NCBI GenBank assembly: GCA_039096225.1 | Contig: JBBPEB010000013.1 | Span: 806,001-870,000 of the forward strand | Source: Blastocystis sp. Blastoise | Lineage: Eukaryota; Protista; Bigyra: Opalinata | Direction: 5' to 3' | Length of the DNA stretch: 64,000 nucleotides | Shown: positions 1 through 64,000 of the stretch, piece after piece | How positions within the stretch are numbered: the stretch's first letter is position 1 | How the letters are laid out: each line of letters starts with the position of its first letter | Translations under genes and position numbers: made by a program | The notes under the pieces: model-generated | The model's database searches: none | What the model saw: the letters and a program-made list of their open reading frames with translations, nothing else | What the model was told of the DNA's origin: nothing

Positions 1-1621
1 AGAATCAAATGGAGGTAAATATACTAATATGCCTACTATTCAATATACTTCACATTTTAATCCTAATAGTGGTGTTTCTACATTAGAATTTTATGATTTT
101 GATGTTGCACATAGAGAAGCAGAAAGAAATTATCAAATGTTAAATAGAGAACAAAAAGAAATATTTGATAGAATTATGGTATCTGTTAATAATACTCAAC
201 CTCATAATAATAATATGTTCTTTATTGATGGTCCTGGTGGAACTGGAAAAACATTCTTATATAATACTTTGATCAAGATGATTCGTACAAGAGAAAAACC
301 TGTATTAGCTGTTGCATTCACAGGAATAGCAGCTACTTTATTATCAGGAGGAAGTACTTCTCATTCTGTATTTGGATTACCACTTGATCTAAATGAAATG
401 TCTATTTCACATATAACAAGAAGTAGTGCAAAAGCAAATGATTTAAGAAAATGTGCTATTATTATTTGGGATGAAGCACCTATGGCTTCTATTTATGCTT
501 TAGAAGTTCTTGATAATTTATTACATGATTTATTTAGTTCAATAGATTCTGAAGATCCATGTCTTCAATATCCTTTTGTTGGTAAAACTATTGTTTTAGG
601 TGGAGATTTTAGACAATGTTTACCAGTAGTTAAAAATGGAAATGAATCATCTACTGTTGGTGTATGTTTGAAAAGATTTAAATATTGGAATAATTTTATA
701 CAATGTCATTTAGTTCAGAATATGAGAGCAGATAGAGATGCTTTAGATTTTAAAGAATGGTTAATGAAAGTAGGAAATGGTGAACGATTAAATAATGAAT
801 CTGATTTGAATGATAATATTGTAGAAATACCTTCACAATGTATAAGTACAGAAAATTTATATAAAGAGATATGGGAGAATATACTTCATAATAGAAATAT
901 TTTATCAGAACAACATAGAAAAGATTTATCTGAGAATTGTATTTTATGTTGTACGAATGAAGATACTTTTGATATAAATGAGAAAGTATTAGATTTAATA
1001 CCTTCTTCAGAATCAGAAAAAATATATTATAGTTTTGATACTTTAGAAGATGAAATAGTTAATGATTCTGAAAGAGCTGCTTATTCTCCTGAATTTCTTA
1101 ATACTCTTCTTCCTCAAGGATTTCCTCCTCATAAATTAAGATTAAGAAAAGGCTGTATTATTATGTTATTGAGAAATCTTAATATAAAGAAGGGTTTATG
1201 TAATGGAACAAGATTAGTTGTTCTTGAAACATTAAATAATGTTATTCGTGCTCAATTATTAAATAAGCCAGATAATTTATTACCTGGTGAAGATATTGTA
1301 TTTATTCCAAGAATCAGTTTAATTACTTCAGATGATTCACTTCCTACTAAGATGAGAAGAAAACAATTTCCTGTTCGATTAGCTTTTGCTATGACTATTA
1401 ATAAATCACAAGGTCAAACATTTAAAAATGTTGGATTATATTTAAAGAGACCTGTATTTAGTCATGGTCAATTATATGTTGCTTTTAGTAGAGTTCGTTC
1501 TTTTAATGGTTTACATATTTATGCTGAAAATTGTAATAACAATAATCAAGGACATCTTAGTAAAGACTATCCTAATAAGGTATTTACGACTAATTGCATT
1601 TTTGATGGAGTTTTAAATTAG
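1..1621 (+). CDS. Helitron RepHel protein, C-terminal Pif1/SF1B helicase domain (5'-truncated by window edge)
   Basis: Motifs DGPGGTGKT, IIWDEAPM, GGDFRQCLPV, LCNGTRL, QFPVRLAFAMTINKSQGQT, HGQLYVAFSRV. Differs from the C-terminus of the 46094-50911 ORF at 3 of 530 aa. Confidence 0.95.
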   Translation, partial: ESNGGKYTNMPTIQYTSHFNPNSGVSTLEFYDFDVAHREAERNYQMLNREQKEIFDRIMVSVNNTQPHNNNMFFIDGPGGTGKTFLYNTLIKMIRTREKPVLAVAFTGIAATLLSGGSTSHSVFGLPLDLNEMSISHITRSSAKANDLRKCAIIIWDEAPMASIYALEVLDNLLHDLFSSIDSEDPCLQYPFVGKTIVLGGDFRQCLPVVKNGNESSTVGVCLKRFKYWNNFIQCHLVQNMRADRDALDFKEWLMKVGNGERLNNESDLNDNIVEIPSQCISTENLYKEIWENILHNRNILSEQHRKDLSENCILCCTNEDTFDINEKVLDLIPSSESEKIYYSFDTLEDEIVNDSERAAYSPEFLNTLLPQGFPPHKLRLRKGCIIMLLRNLNIKKGLCNGTRLVVLETLNNVIRAQLLNKPDNLLPGEDIVFIPRISLITSDDSLPTKMRRKQFPVRLAFAMTINKSQGQTFKNVGLYLKRPVFSHGQLYVAFSRVRSFNGLHIYAENCNNNNQGHLSKDYPNKVFTTNCIFDGVLN

Positions 1622-1854
1622 TTATTGTTTTATTTGTTTTATTTGTTTTTTGATTTCTTTTATATTTGTTATTGTCTGTTAATATATTTGTTTTTATTTA
1701 TTATTTTTCTCTTTTCAATTTTTATTTGTTGTCTTAAAAGTTAAATATAGAATATTCTATTGTTTTGTTAAAACTTAAAAACCAAAAACTAAAAATAGAT
1801 ATTTTAAAATAAAACTCAAGCGTAGGCCTGCGTAGGCAGGCCGTGAAACGCTTG
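1..1854 (+). mobile_element. Autonomous Helitron copy 1 (3' part; 5' part lies outside the window)
   Basis: Pif1-type helicase ORF, then subterminal hairpin GGCCTGC-gtag-GCAGGCC (1825-1842) and CTTG|T at 1851-1855. Homology with copy 2 (45857 onward, minus strand) stops at this point. Confidence 0.92.
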
Positions 1855-1887
1855 TTTATATTAAAAAACAAAATAGAATAAATGAGA

Positions 1888-21749: not shown

Positions 21750-24301
21750 TTAATCTGTTTTATAGGTACCTTGTAAATCAAGCATACACTTTTCAGAATC
21801 GCAGAATGAGATTTCAGAAGGATACATATTAAGTTCTGTACCATTATTTTTATGTTCTTCAATACCAGATCCGAAAGATTTTTTACTATTAGAAGATTTT
21901 AATTTATTAGAACGTATTTGGAATGGATTTAATTTCTTTTCATTATTATTAAGAACTGATTCTACAGCTATAGACATAGCTTTAGGAGAAGAAGGAGTAG
22001 TAAGAGTTTCTTCTTCTTCAGTCCAAGAAATAGGTAAAAGATTTTTACTCATTTCAATATATTGTTCTTCTGTAATTTCTTGATAAGGAATTTGTGGATA
22101 ACAAGATAAATCACATTTAGGTAAACACGAAATACCTTTTAATTGATATTGGAAATAATCTAAACATTTTTCAACCATATTTGATTCTGTTTTAGGATCA
22201 AATGTGACAGTACAACTAACTTGATTATCAGCCCAATATTTCTGTAAGAAAGCAGCTAAAGAGAATTGTTCAAAAATCGATACTTCATCAATAACACGAA
22301 CATTTTTACCCGCACAAACAGGGAATTCTACAACAACTAATTGATTTTCTTGTCCAACAGCAGGTTCTATATGATATCCGGCATGTTCTAAAGCAGGTAA
22401 CATATCACTATCTTTAGGGAAACGTACACGACGTATATAAAAACGACCTAATGGATAATGCATACCAGGAGTAGCACCAGCTAATAAAGATACAGTACCT
22501 GAAGGTTTAATAGAAGTAGTTTTAATAGATCGAGGTACACATAACCATTCACTATATACATCATCCCAATGTTGAACTGTATTATATCCTTCATCCATCC
22601 ATTCACGTAAATCTTCTAAACTATGTTCAGATAAGAATTGAGCTACACCAGAAACAGAACAACCTATTCTACGATTTCTTAACATAACTCTATTAGTTTC
22701 AGGCCAATGAGTCATTCCTAAAGTAACTGTCTTTGCATATAAATAAGCAAATTTCAAAGTACGTTTATATTCTTGTAAAGAATTATGTCTAGCAGGAAAT
22801 GTTTCGACTAAACAACATAATTCATAAGATTCTAAAGATTGTTCTAAACATGGATTTCCACCTTTAACTCTATATATATATATATATGTTAGAAACATGT
22901 AGTATTATATTTTATAAAGATAAAAAATATAATATTGTGAACATTCTAATAATATAGCATTACTCAAGCTCTAATACAACTTATAATGAAGTAGATAGGG
23001 TAGTTATGTAATGCATTAGTAAATATTATTTATAATCATAGCATATTAATATATATATATATATGTATTATATATATATACCTTTTATCTTTATAATCTT
23101 TAGGATCAGCCATTCTACCATAAGCTCTCATATTCTCTAACCAACATAAACCAGGTTCACCATTTATACATATACGACTAGCTATTTGATGATAATTCAT
23201 ACCTAAACGAGCAAAAATACTATTATTAGAAGTCCAGCCATAGGAAGAACGATGAGGATTTATCTCATAATTCTATATATATGTTATTATAGTATATATT
23301 TTTAATTTAATTGTTATTAAAAAAAAAAGAGAGAGAGAAAAAAAAACACTTTATATAACTACCTTTAAATCTAAGAAAGCATCATCATTTTCTTCTCCAA
23401 AAGCGATTTCAGCACAACGAATATTACCAACCCCAATAACACATTTACCAATATAATTAAATAAATCAACAATTAAAGTAGAAGATAACTTTTTACCAAT
23501 CTATATAAATTGAATACATAAATAATACATATACTTAATAGAATAATAAATAAATATATATACATCTTGTGTTAATAATTTTACTATTTGTTCATGAAGA
23601 TCAATAAGTGGTTTTGGACCTGAAGATTTACCGCCATATGTCTTTAAATCTTCACCAGCAGTACGAATATGTGAATAATCAAAAGTAATTCCAGGAAGAC
23701 GTTGTCCATTTTCACCAAAATAAGATAAAATCAGATCACCAACTGATTTAACCCATCCTTCACGGCTATCTTCAATTTCATATACAACACGTTCTAAAGA
23801 AGGATCAGGACCAACAATAGTTACTTTATTTGCTCCTTTAGTATCAAAACCAACACCTACACCCAGCATAGTAGCATCCATTAAGAACTCAAATGGCTTT
23901 GATAAATCAACATCAATATTCTCTGTAGACACAAAAGCACAATTATTTAAAGCAGCAGCTAAATTCTTTTGATGAATAATAGGTGTTCCCATACAATATA
24001 AACCACGACCAGGAGGAAGAAACTTCATATTAAAGATCATATCGTACATTTCTTCAGCACTTCGTTCACCTTGTTCATCATTCCAACCTAAATGATATTG
24101 CTCAATGTGATTTTTCTGAATAGAATAGGTGCCTTCAACAACACGACGAACAGTTTCAAACCAATCTTCTTTGTGTCCATTGATGGTTCTAGAATAAGTT
24201 CTTCTATAAATAGTTTCACCTAATCCATTAAATCCGAAAGGAGCTTTCTTATGTCTATATTGCTCAACAAAATCATCATTCAAACTAAACGAATATTCCA
24301 T
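21750..24301 (-). CDS. nrdJ: Class II (adenosylcobalamin-dependent) monomeric ribonucleoside-triphosphate reductase, 4 exons
   Basis: PPGRGL, ALNNCAF, GVGVGFD, TSNNS, GEPG, NPCLEQSLESYELCCLVE, IKPSGTVSLLAG, WADNQVSCT and C-terminal redox pair FCDSEKC; three GT-AG introns. Confidence 0.93.
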
Positions 24302-45604: not shown

Positions 45605-46093
45605 TTTATAATGAAAAATATTATTATCTGATTATTTAAATATTTAAGAACGAAAATATTTGTTCTGTTAAGATTTCCATGGATTTCGAAGAATATGCCA
45701 GTGTTCCTTGTAAAAAAATCGAAATTGTGTTTTTGAAATGAATTCATTCGTTTTACTAACGTAATTTCTGTATTTTCTTGTAATTTTATTATTATATTCA
45801 GCTATTCAGAATATCCTGATCATAATTTAATTCAATGTACTTCAAAATAATATGTACAAGCGTTTCACGGCCTGCATACGCAGGCCTACGCTTGAGTTTT
45901 ATTTTAAAATATTTAGTTTTAGTTTTTGGTTTTAAGTTTAACAAAACAACAAAATATTATATATTTAACTTTTAAGAACAGCAAATAAAAATTGAAAAGA
46001 GAAAAATAATAAATAAAAGCAAATATATTAACAAAGAATAACGAATATAAAAGAAATCAAAGAATAAAACAAATAAAACAAATAAAACGATAA

Positions 46094-56417
<10,324 letters not shown>

Positions 56418-57853
56418 GATAGATTATTAATATATATGTTTTTCTTTGACAGAAGATATTATTTATAAGATAATAGTTCTTATATTCTTGTTAATAATAA
56501 ATAATAGAGTGAAAAAATCTTTTTCCCCATGTTTTTGTTTTAGTAGATGACCTTCAAAAAACAAACTTTCAGCTGGAAGATCAATTTTTAAAATGTCTTT
56601 TCTTAAATAATTATTTAAAAAGAATATATCTATCTTATAAATCTAACACTGGTTTGATTCATGAAGTCAACAGAAGCAAATATAAAGGCATAGTAGTAGA
56701 AATTATGAACAAAATCCGCCAATTTGTTTGTATCATATCAAATAACTTTATAGCTTCAAATGGAAGCATGTAGTGTGTGTAAATCATGATTGTGATGAAG
56801 TCTAAATTTAGTTATAATTACTAAAACCGTATTTAGTCAGATTTTGAAAAGTATTGCTTTTTTAAAGTATACATATTTAGAATAGCATTATATTTACTCT
56901 TATTTTCTATTTGAATCGCTTTATCTATAGTAGATAAATAAAAACACGTAAATGAGTAAAGAATTGTCAGTATCATAAAATAAAAAGGACTTCCTACGTC
57001 ATAGTAATCGTTTACAGCCATTGTAGTTTACTAAACTGAACAAACATGATGTTGACACATGTTATAGAATGCATTCTTATTTTTAAGACTGACTCAAACA
57101 TGGTCATTGATATTAAATATGCTATAAAGTACTGCTGGTAATAGTTTGTTATTCACTTATGATTCCCATATATGGAATCACTTTTAATAAATAATAAATT
57201 GTAAAAATATATATATATTTGGGGTATCTATAATATTAGATAAGCAAAACAATTTATGTAATAAACGCTATAACTACAGCCTAGTAGTTTTAATCTTTAT
57301 TAATCAAAAGTATACACATTTTGACACATTGGTAAAAATACAACCACGTTTATTTCCAATAATATTTTGACTAATAACAGTATTAAACACTCTAATAATT
57401 AATTTTACAAACAGTGAATTGAATCTCTTGTTTTAAGGCACGTAAACACACAATTCAAAACTGTTTTAACCTTAAAATTTGATATTTAGACGTAATATTT
57501 ACACATTAGACTATATGTATCCGTCAAGACATATTTGACTACTTTTTAACAACTTTAGAGTCAACATGTCCAGTTTGTCATTCACTCCTCAACTCCACTT
57601 TTGACTATTTTTTTAAGAAATGCAATACATATAAGGTCTATTTTTCAAAAATGTAAAAATTAATTGTCAAATATGAATTTGATTTGTCAACTTTCGGAAA
57701 ATTTTTAGAAAAATGATTTTTCAATTTTCAGTTTTTTAACATGTTATACTATTGACTCTATTGAACTCATTTTTTTATTAATTTCAAATATTAAAAATAA
57801 TATAATTAATATATTTTATTCTCTATATATATTTGCTAAAATTATATTAAATA

Positions 57854-58820
57854 ATTAAATATTGACTGAGAAATTAATGTTATAAAGTATACCCTTTTTC
57901 CAAAAATTAATTTTTTTATGTTTTGCATATATAATTTTTTTTCTCAAAAGTTATTTTATATTTTGATAATATTTTTATAAATATATAAACTATATGTTAT
58001 CTAGTTTATAGATAAGTTTTATTTATTTATTAAAAATTGATATTGATGGAGAAATTGTCAAAATAAACTATAGTATCCAAAATGCTTCCTTCTTTTTAAA
58101 CGACTTATTTCACTAATTAAAGACAATTAAAAACTTATTTATTTATTTAAAGCATATTTATGACATTTGCAACTCATAATGACTCATAACTAACTTTTTA
58201 GAACAAACATTGTCTGTATCAGTTCAACATGTTGTCTTAAAATTTTCAAATAAGTGATATATAGTATCCATGAGTGGTTCTAAACACATATTAAAACGTT
58301 TTAAGAGTTTATTGAGTTAACATTGTCTGGTGATCTGTTGTTAAAGTCTTTTAAAAACAAAATAAAATTATAAAATATGTTTATTTTGGTATGTTGTTAT
58401 TAAATATAAAGTCAAATGTCAAATAAAATTGTTAATGATGAAAAAATTAACAAAAAACAAATAAAGAATTTTTAAGAAAAATTTCGAACGTCATTTTTTA
58501 TTGAGTTCAACTATTGTCTCCTGTGACTTCATTTTTTATATTTTTAAAAAAATGACAAAAACGCATCATGTTTTGGTTGTCTTATATCTAAATATGTTTT
58601 AACTTTATTATTTTATTAAATATTGACTGAGAAATTACAATCACAAAATATACCCTTTTTAGAAAATTTTCATTTTTATGTTTTTAATATAAACTTAGAT
58701 ATTTTAGTCAATATTGAATATTAAATAAAAATATTAAAAATGCATCATTTTTATGTTATCTAGTTTCTAAATATGTTTTTACTTTTTGTATATGTTGAAT
58801 ATTGAAAGAGATCTGGTGGT
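57854..58820. repeat. Degenerate ~200-bp direct repeats in the Helitron 5' non-coding region
   Basis: ATTAAATATTGACTGAGAAATTA at 57854 and 58615; TATACCCTTTTT in both copies; TATGTTATCTAGTTT at ~57993 and ~58752 (offset ~760 bp). Confidence 0.75.
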
Positions 58821-60486
58821 CACAAAATTGGGTGTCAAACACAAAAATTTTTATAAACAAATTTTTCTCTTTTAAAAGATATTATAAAAATATAAAACAT
58901 ATTTATGACGGATACGGAGTTAGATAAATACAAAACAGTTCAATTAAGTTTATTTAAAAGGAATGTGTTGGATATCAGTTTGTCTTTTGTCGTTATTTAA
59001 AGGAATTATTGTTGTTTCAGAGTAGTTAAAGTCATTATCATGACAAATGAAACCAATTTAGAGTTTATAGTTAGTGATGTGTGTATTGATATGTTGTCAA
59101 GTTCTAAATATAAACAAATCTACCCGTCAAAACTATTTATAAGACCAACCCGTCAATAAAAGTCAATTTTATAAAAATAAATATAGAGTATGTTAATAGA
59201 TATAGGAAAAATAAGAAAACAATAAAAAATGAAAATGGAAAAATAAGTGTTTTTCTAAAAATGAAAAATATTGGATAAAATAAAAATAATCCAATAATCT
59301 TGGTTAAAATTTTGTGCGAAAATGGTTTTTTGCGAATTTTAGCCAGAAATTTAGAGTTTTCGAAAAATTTCTTTAACAGTCATTTTTAGAATTGTGTTCC
59401 GGATGTTTTGATGTTATTTTTATTTTATAAAAGTTAATAACAAAGTCAATAATACGAAAAATGTGTGAGACACCGTACTTTTGGGCTGCTAAATTAAGGA
59501 TATTAATTCTACTGATTTCAGTAAATCATCACAAATTTCATTGTTTTTATTCGTTAATTATTAGCTTCAATATATTTATATATACAAATATTTTTAGTCT
59601 TATTCATATCAACTTGAGTTCAGTGACTTTCGATACAAAAATGCTTTGTTTCCTATTGATATATAGAAATTTATTTTTCACTAGATCTTATTAACGTATA
59701 TAAATAAAGCTCACTTAAAGATTTATGCATTTAAATCACAAAAAAAAAGATATATAACTGAAAAAAAGAAAATTATGCAGCCTAAACAGTAGTTGATTGC
59801 TCTAGCAAGTGTGGTTGTATAGATTGCATCTGATATTATAAATATTATACTTGTTGAATATAGAAAAATATAATGAGAGTTAAAATCAATTATTATGTTC
59901 CTGTTATAATATATTATTCGTATATATTACCGCTAGACATTACAATTTATTTATAGCACTTTTATATTCATTATGATACGTTAATTAGATTAATATACAA
60001 CATTTTGAAAAGAATCAGGTCTTTTCTAACCTTTCTAAGTGTTATAAATATATATAAATATGAAATAAAGTTTTTCATGTCATTAGCAATATATATCAAT
60101 TAATACTTATGGTTTTTATCACAAATAGAGTAATCAAGTCACAAATTGTTTAACTAAAAACAGTATAATATTTGAGATATGGCATTTTTTAAATTATATA
60201 GTACCAATAAAAGCTTGTGACAGTCAGTTATACTATTTCTACATTAATTATAAAACAGTTTAAAAAAAGAGTTTTAAAAATGCTATATTTTTTATCAAAT
60301 AAATTCATACTGTATATGCAGACCAGAATAATAATGTGAAATTTAAATAATGATAAAATACAGCAACAAAATATCAACTTTGATCATTTATAATATAATT
60401 TAATCCACCATATAAATTCTATAACTCTTCGAGTTCATTTTATAAACAGTGTATTTAGTTTTATATTCATTAATTAAGAAAAATAA

Positions 60487-60669
60487 ATAGAAAATAATGT
60501 ATTTTTAAATACTATGAAAGAAACGAGTTGTTTTCCCTGATGAGCCGATATATACCGAGCTTGCTCGGTATATTCGGCATTTTTACACGAGTCGAAGGAC
60601 GAGTGTAAAAATAATCAGGGAAAATAACGAGTTTCATTCATAGTATTTCAAAATAATCATTTTTCTGTT
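60487..60669. repeat. T/Y-shaped branched palindrome
   Basis: ~55-bp imperfect stem (60487-60541 with 60614-60669) enclosing hairpin arms 60544-60578 and 60580-60611. Confidence 0.9.
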
Positions 60670-60962
60670 ACTATGAAAGAAAAAAATCAAAAAAACCGCG
60701 ATTATATTTAATTTTTTGTATATAACATTATTTTGCTTCAATACATGATCATATATATACTATTGACCTAATCAAAAACTAGTTTGGTAATTTAGACACA
60801 CAATTAAAAACATGATAATAAATAATAGCCAATTACATTTTCATAATTAAATTTATTTGTTCAATAAACACAGAATCATCATATAATTATATATGATTTT
60901 AAATTTTATGAAAAAGTTATATATAAAAAACATAAATAGGTAAATTTTATTATAATAATCAA

Positions 60963-61088
60963 TATTAATTCTTCCGTTCTTCGAACTGCAGAAGGGGGTA
61001 TGCAAACCCCGCATAGAGTCTGCGCGACGCGCGCAGCCATAAGCGGGGAAGACATCCCCCCTTTTTGTTCTCGACGGAAGAATTAATA
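60963..61088. repeat. GC-rich 126-nt imperfect rod hairpin
   Basis: TATTAATTCTTCCGT/ACGGAAGAATTAATA (15 bp perfect), G-run/C-run, CCCCGC/GCGGGG, CTGCGCG-acg-CGCGCAG. Confidence 0.9.
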
Positions 61089-61687
61089 ACATTTCTGAAG
61101 TAAAATAACCATGGGAGTGTAGGGTAGTGTGTGTGTGTATTTATTTTTTCCCATGTTTATTTATTTTTAATTTATTTGTGTTCCGATTCCAACGTGAAAC
61201 GTAAAGTGATCAAGGAGAAACTCATAGTAATAATAAAAGAAATAAAATACACAGTCCAACCCTCCCCTTTACAGGGAATATTCATAGGAAATGGCTCCAT
61301 CGTTGGTAAAGTGAGTAAAATAATCACGGGAATACAGAAAGAAATACGAAAAGAAGCACAGAATGTGCTAAATAAACACACACCCCGACCCTCCCTTTAT
61401 ATAGAGAAAAGATGAAATGGATGGTTCTATCTAAAAAGAAATAATAAAAATAATCACGGGAATATATAAAAATAAAAATGTATGTATAGTGATCAATAAA
61501 TAATATAAAAAGTCATGATAATCATAAAAAAATTATATAAAAAGAGTAAAGTGATCAAGGTATGTATTTATAGTGGGTGAAAGAAACGCTGGTGGTGGTG
61601 TGGTCTTGTAAAAAGATGTACCCACCACCACGATTATAACGAGAGACTTTTGGAAACATGAGCGACCGATATGGAAAAATATAAATT

Positions 61688-61735
61688 TTCGAGAACATTC
61701 TAGAACATTCTCGAAACTTCTAGAACATTCGAGAA
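61688..61735 (+). promoter_or_regulatory. Heat-shock element array (10 contiguous alternating nTTCn/nGAAn units) upstream of the recombinase
   Basis: TTCgaGAAcaTTCtaGAAcaTTCtcGAAacTTCtaGAAcaTTCgaGAA, ending 88 nt before ATG 61824. Confidence 0.8.
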
Positions 61736-61823
61736 CATGAGAATCTTAGATATTTTATTTTGATTTTCTTATGTATTATTCTTTTGAAAATAGAAGTTTT
61801 AAAGATTCTACTTGAGAAAATCA

Positions 61824-62759
61824 ATGAAAAATACAAATTATGACAAGTATCTTTTGGTTATACAGAATTCAAATTATTCTGATATTTGGAAAAAACGTTT
61901 AACCAATTATTTCAATTTATATATTTTCCCATTACCATTTAAAAAGTTCTCAGAATTCTTAAAGAATCCTTATTCATTCATGGATTATATGGTAAATGAA
62001 CGTAAAATCAAAATTAGTCCAATGAAATCGTTATGTGAATTGATTTTATTTATTATACGTAATGTTTCTTCATTAAATAAAGAAGGTATTTTAAATAAAT
62101 GGTGTGAATTTTATGTGATTATCAATTCAATGTATGAAAAATATCTGGATAATAAGAAACGTACTTTAATTCAAGATCTTATTAAAGATGGTATTACGAC
62201 TCCATATTTACATGAATATCACGATAAATTAGAAAATTATAATCCATTACGATTAATATTAGATTTTTACTCCTATCTTCCTCCTGCTCGTGCTGATTAT
62301 GCTCAATTATTCATTCTATCACCAGAAGATACTATTGATCCAACTATTCATAAGAATTATATTGTTTATGATAAAGAGAAACACACTGGTTCTATTCTAT
62401 TAAATGATTATAAAACTGCTGGTAAATACTCTACAATTCAATTAGATGCACCAAAAGAATTGATTGAAGATCTAGAATTACTCTTAAAAAGAAATCCAAA
62501 TCGTAAATTTATATTTGAATCTTCTGTAAGAACTGGATTTACTACTAAAGCATTTGATTGGTTTGTGAATAAGCATTTAAAACAAATCCATCCAAAATTA
62601 ACCATTAATGCATTAAGAAAATTATATGCTACAACTACAACCAATACATTCCAAGATATAGAAAATTCTGCTTCTGCTTTATGTCATAATGATTATACAC
62701 ATATTAATTCTTATGTATCTTTAGAAAATAATAATTTATTTAAAAAATTAATTGAATAA
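61824..62759 (+). CDS. Tyrosine recombinase/integrase, Polinton-like-virus type (311 aa from first ATG)
   Basis: Catalytic set in order: R (LPPARADY), K (LNDYKTAGKY), NxxR in place of HxxR (TINALRKLYAT), H (ALCHN), Y (THINSYV). Intronless. Confidence 0.85.
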   Translation: MKNTNYDKYLLVIQNSNYSDIWKKRLTNYFNLYIFPLPFKKFSEFLKNPYSFMDYMVNERKIKISPMKSLCELILFIIRNVSSLNKEGILNKWCEFYVIINSMYEKYLDNKKRTLIQDLIKDGITTPYLHEYHDKLENYNPLRLILDFYSYLPPARADYAQLFILSPEDTIDPTIHKNYIVYDKEKHTGSILLNDYKTAGKYSTIQLDAPKELIEDLELLLKRNPNRKFIFESSVRTGFTTKAFDWFVNKHLKQIHPKLTINALRKLYATTTTNTFQDIENSASALCHNDYTHINSYVSLENNNLFKKLIE

Positions 62760-62832
62760 TTTTATGTTTTCATGTTTGTTTTGCTTTAATTTTGAATATA
62801 ACTAAACAACTAGTAATAAAAGGATATAAAAA

Positions 62833-63207
62833 TTAATTAAAAGGTAAGAAAGATAGATTATTATTATTATTTTGATATTGATTTTGTTGTTGATTACTTT
62901 TCATAGTTGGCATAAACATATTATTGGGTTGAATAAGATTCTTATCATCTTGATATTGATTCTCATTCTTCATATATTGTTTATCCAATAGCATTTCAAG
63001 ACGTTGATGAATCACAGGATCATCTATATAAAGTAGCATATTTCTACAATAACTCAATTGCAAATCACTAAGATTTTTGTTGTTATTGTTATTTAAAAAT
63101 TGTTCTAATAGATTTGCTATTTCATTCTTTTTGGACTTAATTCCTTCTTCTTTTAGATTCTTCATCACACGACAAAAATAAGAATAACTAAGATATTTCT
63201 TGTTCAT
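62833..63207 (-). CDS. Hypothetical viral protein, 124 aa
   Basis: Intronless ORF with helical N-terminus and N/Q-rich tail, convergent with the recombinase and preceded by a conserved promoter module. Confidence 0.6.
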   Translation of the reverse strand: MNKKYLSYSYFCRVMKNLKEEGIKSKKNEIANLLEQFLNNNNNKNLSDLQLSYCRNMLLYIDDPVIHQRLEMLLDKQYMKNENQYQDDKNLIQPNNMFMPTMKSNQQQNQYQNNNNNLSFLPFN

Positions 63208-63227
63208 TATTTAAATTAACCAATGAT

Positions 63228-63325
63228 TAAACAAAACAAATTAATTATATAAAACACTAATATAATAAATTAAAGATTCTACAAATAGAGCCAGTTCAAA
63301 ATGAATGTTCTAGAATGTTCTAGAA
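63228..63325 (-). promoter_or_regulatory. Intergenic module copy A: 5-unit HSE (63303-63325) plus 54-bp repeat (63228-63281)
   Basis: GAAtgTTCtaGAAtgTTCtaGAA; the 54-bp block is 52/54 identical to 63481-63534. Confidence 0.7.
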
Positions 63326-63465
63326 CGTTTCTTGGACATATAAAAGTAAAGTAAAATATATATAATAATAAGAACAATTTCAATAACTGACAATATTTCA
63401 TTTACATTCTCTAAAGTTTCTGCACTACGATCTAAGTAGTAATTGCCAAATCGTTTCTTTGTCAT
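63310..63465 (-). CDS. Small single-TM viral protein, 51 aa
   Basis: MTKKRFGNYYLDRS...ILSVIEIVLIIIYILLYFYM-SKKRSRTF: hydrophobic helix followed by a basic tail, sitting between the two repeated modules. Confidence 0.5.
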   Translation of the reverse strand: MTKKRFGNYYLDRSAETLENVNEILSVIEIVLIIIYILLYFYMSKKRSRTF

Positions 63466-63480
63466 TATAGTATTAAATAA

Positions 63481-63547
63481 TAAACAAAACAAATTAATTA
63501 TATAAAATATTAATATAATAAATTAAAGATTCTAGAATATTCTAGAA
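63481..63547 (-). promoter_or_regulatory. Intergenic module copy B: 4-unit HSE (63530-63547) plus 54-bp repeat (63481-63534)
   Basis: TTCtaGAAtaTTCtaGAA abutting the repeat block. Confidence 0.7.
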
Positions 63548-63551
63548 TGTT

Positions 63552-64000
63552 TTAACAAGGCATAAGATTTCCATTAGAAAGTAAATAAAGTAAAGAATAA
63601 TAAAAGCAACCATTTGCATTACTTGTAGTTTTTTGGTGTTGAATAGGATTATATTGAATATTATGATTTTGAATAAATGATTTTGAAAAAGTAGGTTCAT
63701 TTCCTAATGATGAATAGTGTTCTATGTTTTTATTACCATTATAAATAACAGCTTCAAAATGACCATTATAAGGATCACTAGGACTTTCATGAAAGATCAT
63801 ATTAAATTTAGTTTGATCTTGATCTATATTTTGTTCAAAATCATCATAACTATTATAATAATTATAAGATTGAGAATTCGTTTTATTTAATTGTTTCATA
63901 ACATTTTCAGCACGATCACAAGCAACAGAAGAGGTAGGTTTATTTAAATAAGCATAATTATATAATTGAGATATTAAAGAATTGGGTATATTACAATATT
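63552..64000 (-). CDS. Adenain/Ulp1-like cysteine protease (Polinton PRO-type), 5'-truncated by window edge
   Basis: NGHFEAV...IEHYSSLG...QYNPIQHQ...ANGCFYYSLLYL resembles the GHW-x-A...E-x-FDSxG...Q...CGxY pattern. The frame stays open from 63899 to the window end. Confidence 0.6.
   Translation of the reverse strand, partial: YCNIPNSLISQLYNYAYLNKPTSSVACDRAENVMKQLNKTNSQSYNYYNSYDDFEQNIDQDQTKFNMIFHESPSDPYNGHFEAVIYNGNKNIEHYSSLGNEPTFSKSFIQNHNIQYNPIQHQKTTSNANGCFYYSLLYLLSNGNLMPC

Follow-up and report, generated by a model that had tools for sequence, protein, structure and literature searches.

Can an endogenous virus-like element in the genome of a gut protist place its genes under the control of the host's heat-shock factor (HSF)? 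The question is raised by a 64,000-nt stretch of DNA from Blastocystis sp. Blastoise (hereafter, the window), in which ten perfect alternating TTC/GAA units stand upstream of a tyrosine recombinase (YR) gene. A previous sequence-only reading of the window had interpreted this arrangement as a stress-inducible excision switch, analogous to the SOS induction of prophages. Our analysis supports the components of that proposal, namely a protist host, a multi-copy virus-like element, an intact YR and an array of heat-shock-element (HSE) consensus at promoter distance from it, and HSF-type proteins are listed for the host strain as well. By contrast, two further elements of the proposal did not hold up, as the spacers of the array offer no proof of selection for HSF binding and the motif is not specific to the recombinase.

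The recombinase and its element

By its predicted fold and its conserved residues, the 311-aa ORF is an intact tyrosine recombinase of the type found in giant viruses, virophages as well as Polinton-like viruses (PLVs). R156, K197, R265, H288 and Y297 are all present (Table 1). Among 136 aligned relatives of 250-420 aa, the first three of these are invariant (136/136) and H288 is found in 133, while the six closest relatives all retain Y297 and the His position of the HxxR motif is occupied by N262. Pfam yielded PF00589 below threshold (E 0.085) and a PHROG search was without match; a profile-free search of 1.84 billion representatives recovered 333 relatives at E <=0.001. The predicted structure (pLDDT 96.7) has Cre, XerA and lambda Int in its top PDB rows (probability 1.00, best E 1.1e-3), its best match among viral models is from Aureococcus anophagefferens virus (E 2e-11), and it also matches proteins of other giant viruses and of the Qinghai Lake virophage. 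Furthermore, a profile of the YR family matches YRs adjoining virophage capsid genes. OLV11-like YRs are described from the Aureococcus virus, other giant viruses and the Qinghai Lake virophage in the available part of PMC4642659, and the YR of the window is likely to be OLV11-like as well, an assignment made via those structural matches. Together with its Blastoise relatives and those at 41-42% identity, it groups into a single clade (bootstrap 99), which the tree, holding 31 distinct viral YRs, does not assign to those of giant viruses, virophages or PLVs. On viral contig L098, four YR genes are arranged as mirrored pairs, two in number, which may reflect an inverted duplication or an assembly artefact; a metagenome-contig candidate for a YR relative (L069) was rejected, as it is not a YR.

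The YR cluster comprises 10 variants over 19 contig entries, 9 named Blastocystis sp. Blastoise, and these variants differ from the window copy at 0-3 of 311 residues. Two more divergent lineages, at 30-40% identity, are likewise labelled Blastocystis sp. Blastoise. Further relatives, at 41-42% identity, sit on contigs reaching 16-27.5 kb. A unit of 15-30 kb with terminal repeats, integrated in many copies, would characterise a Polinton-like virus, virophage or Polinton; of this, many YR copies and contigs of relatives of up to 27.5 kb were observed. No DNA around close YR relatives was found in viral contigs, metagenome contigs or prokaryote genomes.

At its right edge, the window breaks off within a homologue of adenain/Ulp1-like viral proteases. 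This ORF resembles clusters bearing Peptidase_C5 (atlas score 0.96; the family is found on 13-62% of members), its best match among the ORFs of the examined loci is a 185-aa protein of a virophage locus (L081, E 0.0095), and the structural matches of its model (pLDDT 59), at a best E of 1.7e-3, include a MELD-virus protease, Sputnik V9 and adenain; neither a PDB match by sequence nor a locus was found for it. The catalytic His is aligned and kept, whereas other residues stand in place of the Asp and the Cys, and the protein is therefore predicted to be inactive. A YR next to an adenain-like fold suggests an element of the Polinton-like or virophage-like kind. Adenain-like maturation proteases are a feature of virophages, Polintons and Gosseviruses. 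Among PLVs, a core protease is found in the Gosseviruses (10.64898/2026.06.19.733378, available part). The element is likely to be a multi-copy Polinton-like or virophage-like endogenous virus of Blastocystis. No capsid or packaging gene was seen in the window, which ends at 64000; capsid genes would lie beyond that edge.

A canonical Polinton/Maverick, defined by pPolB and a retroviral-type integrase, does not fit: the integrase-type enzyme seen is a YR, and the available part of supplement 7 of PMC10690189 lists for strain Rus-B (Blastoise) 36 integrase-like proteins, 0 pPolB (IPR004868), 0 retroviral-integrase (IPR001584) and 0 A32 domains, the last being an InterPro count that divergent ATPases can escape. 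Among the literature matches listed, no YR-type element has been described in Blastocystis and the family appears to be undescribed there, although the PMC10120064 datasets, subscription literature or preprint supplements could list some; its relatives occur on many metagenome contigs.

Table 1. Features of the window, with positions counted from its first nucleotide
Feature	Position	Strand	Remarks
Array A	61688-61735		10 perfect alternating TTC/GAA units, 2-nt spacers, heat-shock-element consensus; 88 nt 5' of YR ATG (61824)
Array B	63303-63325		5 perfect units; ends 95 nt before ORF124 ATG; overlaps ORF51 stop codon
Array C	63530-63547		4 perfect units (6 allowing two mismatches); 64 nt before ORF51 ATG; 4 nt past protease-like stop
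YR, 311 aa	61824-62759	+	giant-virus/virophage/PLV-type; R156, K197, R265, H288, Y297
ORF124, 124 aa	62833-63207	-	no family, homologue or atlas hit; array B ends 95 nt upstream of the ATG
ORF51, 51 aa, putative	63310-63465	-	contains a hydrophobic stretch; array C ends 64 nt upstream of the ATG
Adenain/Ulp1-like viral protease homologue	63552-63998	-	open at window edge
57-nt block	63228-63284, duplicated at 63481-63537		95% identical; between array (B, C) and next ATG
Y-shaped palindrome	60486-60669		fold z -12.4; candidate terminal structure of element
GC-rich imperfect long hairpin	60963-61088		fold z -7.3; gene-free stretch 5' of YR
Short direct repeats	61245-61472		~130-nt spacing
Small hairpin	61587-61632		z -4.5; follows the short direct repeats
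Diverged direct repeats, ~320 nt	57700-58020 and 58467-58779		69% identity; left of element, possibly another transposon
Helitron Rep-helicase, first copy	1-1863	+	98% identical to second copy over 1.87 kb
Helitron Rep-helicase, second copy	45848-50902	-	intact 1602-aa ORF
Ribonucleotide reductase ORFs	21750-24301	-	B12-dependent (class II) domains

The 1.2 kb preceding array A are gene-free, contain three strong hairpins as well as direct repeats, and may be an end of the element. The Y-shaped palindrome and the GC-rich hairpin are candidates for such an end, or alternatively for unrelated small transposons. A hammerhead reading of the palindrome was ruled out by inspection, and Rfam gave 0 matches on 57000-64000. 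As weak evidence for the promoter reading given below, contigs of run X1 extend over portions of the YR, ORF124 and protease ORFs at depth 2-17, with the arrays outside this coverage, and runs X2 and X3 gave none; run X1 is presumably RNA, given the spliced host introns seen in it, and is a single study of unspecified conditions that may not be independent. Downstream of the element ORFs, TGTTT(T/A)?GTT occurs within 13-71 nt of 4/4 ends, at 62773(+), 62808(-), 63238(-) and 63491(-), the variants having been chosen post hoc. It resembles the Blastocystis downstream gene element. According to the available text of PMC10690189, that element is not enriched in tortoise isolates.

Arrays of HSE consensus and the host's HSF-type proteins

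Array A, with the spacers ga/ta/tc and ca/ac, was confirmed at the coordinates and the distance from the YR ATG that had been reported for it and is far beyond chance, since an independent-site model predicts ~7e-12 ten-unit arrays per window. It is also not alone. Arrays of at least four units were found three times in the 64 kb, all within 1.9 kb, whereas 50 order-3 Markov simulations of the window produced none; elsewhere in the window there are only two 3-unit matches, which is at chance level (1.66 expected). When read in the sense of the genes they precede, all three arrays follow TTC-ta-GAA-ca/ta, and the orientation GAA-ca/ta-TTC is common to 3/3. Each of them contains at least three contiguous inverted nGAAn units (10, 5 and 4, respectively) and fits the HSF site TTCxxGAAxxTTC as it is defined in the available part of PMC9157408. 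The distances to the next ATG, 64-95 nt, would be compatible with a promoter position.

The spacers of array A are less informative than had been supposed. Their variation, with none in the TTC and GAA cores, had been taken as a sign of selection on HSF binding, but this argument is weak. Only 4-5 substitutions are involved, and their neutral placement entirely on spacers has p 0.026-0.010 before ascertainment is considered. Moreover, the array is itself delimited by perfect cores, so that spacer-only variation arises by construction, and phages carry similar arrays where no HSF exists.

The extent of this last point became evident from a scan of viral contigs for at least six units, which returned 68 loci (redundant) with 33 distinct array strings. 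At 51 of the 68, the array lies inside an ORF of at least 100 aa, and 42 of these are similar to phage replication initiators, an annotation given to 9 of 12 tested ORFs. As the hosts of such phages lack HSF, the array pattern is not diagnostic of HSF. In their own right, several phage replication-initiator families hold in-gene TTCnnGAA arrays of 6-7 units, probably origin iterons (L004, L010, L019, L027, L035, L038, L048, L061, L068 and relatives). No YR of the window's family was found at the 68 loci. In two CRESS-DNA viruses, however, six perfect contiguous nGAAn units lie close to the origin stem-loop and, together with a TATA-like box, precede Rep by ~100-110 nt (L049:1484-1511, L064:998-1025). 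Small eukaryotic DNA viruses thus do carry an array-plus-promoter architecture, and these two arrays are candidate HSF-driven Rep promoters.

The absence of HSF from the host would have undermined any role for it. In the available part of supplement 7 of PMC10690189, however, two HSF-type domains (IPR000232) are listed for Rus-B (Blastoise), and 2-3 are found in 8/8 Blastocystis columns. The evidence for the host thus consists of domain counts, linked to the window via 99%-identical named YRs, and such counts say nothing on heat activation or nGAAn binding in Blastocystis. A literature search returned no relevant text on Blastocystis HSF.

A probable shared promoter motif and its alternatives

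The reading we favour, at a probability of roughly 55%, is that the arrays are a host HSF-bound promoter motif common to several genes at one end of the element, active either basally or to a greater extent under stress. The arrays precede three ORFs and arrays B and C adjoin a duplicated block. Such an arrangement fits a motif that serves several genes, as described for the EMALEs (PMC8547959), rather than a recombinase-only switch. Furthermore, no plus-strand ORF of at least 22 aa ends within 600 nt upstream of array A and there is no gene end on either strand; lacking such a nearby gene end, array A leaves a promoter role as the only one that covers all three arrays. Mechanistically, trimers of host HSF would occupy the arrays and bring in the RNA polymerase II of the host. 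The integrated element could thereby transcribe these genes in the absence of a helper giant virus, either at a basal level or, under proteotoxic stress, at a higher one. The YR could then recombine the ends of the element for integration and perhaps for excision. The ten-unit copy before the YR is predicted to be the strongest of the three.

The most serious competitor, though an improbable one in our estimation, is that the arrays are sites for a protein encoded by the element itself, such as replication iterons, targets of a viral transcription factor or accessory sites of the YR, with their HSE appearance due to convergence. Phage replication-initiator genes hold arrays of like form with 6-8 units, array A adjoins the hairpin-rich gene-free stretch that is a possible element end, and type-specific promoter motifs are known to be common to the genes of virophage-like elements (PMC8547959, available part). 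On the other hand, arrays B and C are intergenic and away from the putative end, the visible part of the element has no candidate gene for a DNA-binding protein, and the HSF-type proteins of the host would be expected to bind such sites by established specificity.

The shared HSF promoter can also be extended into an evolutionary scenario, which we regard as doubtful: a lineage of YR-encoding Polinton-like proviruses in Blastocystis may have swapped giant-virus-dependent promoters for host HSEs, such that proteotoxic stress, e.g. swings in the body temperature of ectothermic hosts, would directly induce their gene programme, excision and spread. Counting against the favoured HSF reading itself, a scan of related elements for arrays upstream of the YR, which the sequence-only reading had suggested, gave no hits: of 38 YR ORFs, all of them distant relatives from 35 loci of giant-virus, virophage or PLV-like type, 0 have at least 3 units within 400 nt upstream. 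Among the 42%-identical relatives, three distinct in-frame upstream peptides (111-114 nt) cannot encode 3 units. In the window, 5 units of array A fall inside a span of this size; the comparison applies to that span only, and an array could lie farther upstream in these relatives.

The original proposal, in which HSF turns on the YR specifically under heat or proteotoxic stress and the element is consequently excised, now appears unlikely. It is true that the longest array stands before the YR, that the host has HSF-type proteins, and that the YR is intact and near the putative end of the element, as it is for PLV integrases (PMC4642659, available part). Nevertheless, the same motif precedes two other ORFs, and it is established for YRs that the level of the enzyme alone often fails to set the direction of recombination. 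The predicted inactivity of the protease-like neighbour suggests that spread may be intracellular, which likewise counts against an excision switch, and in the endogenous virophages known so far, activation comes from giant-virus factors (10.1101/068312, PMC8547959, available parts).

Arrays B and C both sit at gene 3' ends and are able to fold as RNA hairpins, from which it could be argued that the palindromic TTCTAGAA repeats serve 3'-end formation, with array A being an expanded and relocated copy. Array C starts 4 nt past the stop codon of the protease, that of ORF51 is overlapped by array B, and the two fold at -8.5 and -10.6 kcal/mol, with TGTTTTGTT after each. This explanation has little to recommend it overall, as array A comes after no gene, whichever strand is read, and the 3' ends of the YR and ORF124 have the TGTTT motif without an array. 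Least probable is a functionless neutral minisatellite with a 10-bp unit: tandem repeats abound in the window (220 rows listed) and the p of the spacer-only pattern is only 0.01-0.03, but three arrays stand at similar distances from an ATG within 1.9 kb and none of at least 4 units exists elsewhere in the window.

We know of no activator for most endogenous Polinton-like viruses, and the cases worked out to our knowledge need a giant virus. If host HSF does drive the element, heat shock of a culturable gut protist could test its reactivation, and the element would exemplify a helper-independent route. If the stress-induced reading is also true, it would constitute a eukaryotic counterpart of prophage induction with a simple culture handle for reactivation.

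Comparison with known systems

What would be new are HSE-type arrays in the PLV/virophage class, for which no report was found among the literature matches listed; HSE capture by transposons and animal viruses is already known. The available parts of PMC10120064, 10.1101/2024.03.23.586382 and PMC11161782 have no HSE content. The novelty is narrowed by a heat-responsive YR element already known in a protist, DIRS-1 of Dictyostelium. This mobile element also encodes a tyrosine recombinase and its transcription is heat-shock-induced. However, it is a retrotransposon without viral genes, and its heat-induced RNA is a 900-nt antisense transcript (PMC3950715, available part).

Capture of HSEs by ONSEN and Caenorhabditis Helitrons, to which the sequence-only reading had appealed, is documented in the available part of PMC6927752. 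These elements, as well as Macrostomum LTR elements, share tandem HSEs upstream of a mobility enzyme with the window element, yet they are non-viral and are backed by ChIP and induction data, whereas the Blastocystis element is known from sequence alone. Latent or integrated viral DNA with an HSE is exemplified by the HIV LTR and EBV Qp, which are bound by host HSF1, although these belong to animal viruses and the target of the HSE is not a recombinase (PMC9157408, available part). The phage replication-initiator arrays have the same TTCnnGAAnn period and variable spacers, but differ in being inside coding sequence, in having 6-8 units and in their bacterial hosts, which are without HSF; we presume them to be iterons.

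Among viruses, mid-size dsDNA virus sequences have been found in Blastocystis datasets before in the form of MELD viruses. These encode PolB and a retroviral-type integrase (PMC8502044, available part), while the window element has a YR and the strain table counts 0 of either domain. Like the PLVs and Organic Lake-group virophages with an OLV11-like YR (PMC4642659), the element has a protease-like gene and a YR from the giant-virus/virophage/PLV family that lies close to a putative element end; it is integrated in many copies in a protist, and its relatives occur on contigs of up to 16-27 kb. It differs from them in its HSE-like arrays, as no HSE promoter of that group came up among the literature matches listed, as well as in the predicted inactivity of its protease and its separate YR clade; the comparison concerns the part of the element in the window, in which no capsid or ATPase was seen. 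Finally, mavirus and the EMALEs of Cafeteria are, like the present element, endogenous small dsDNA viruses of a stramenopile whose genes have a single promoter motif in common, and reactivation of mavirus needs a giant virus (10.1101/068312, PMC8547959, available parts). A mavirus-type TCTA is found 13 nt 5' of the YR ATG and is absent before the 124-aa and 51-aa ORFs. The key distinction lies in the motif itself, as that of the EMALEs (TCTA in type 4) corresponds to the late promoter of a giant virus, whereas that of the Blastocystis element matches the site of a host stress factor.
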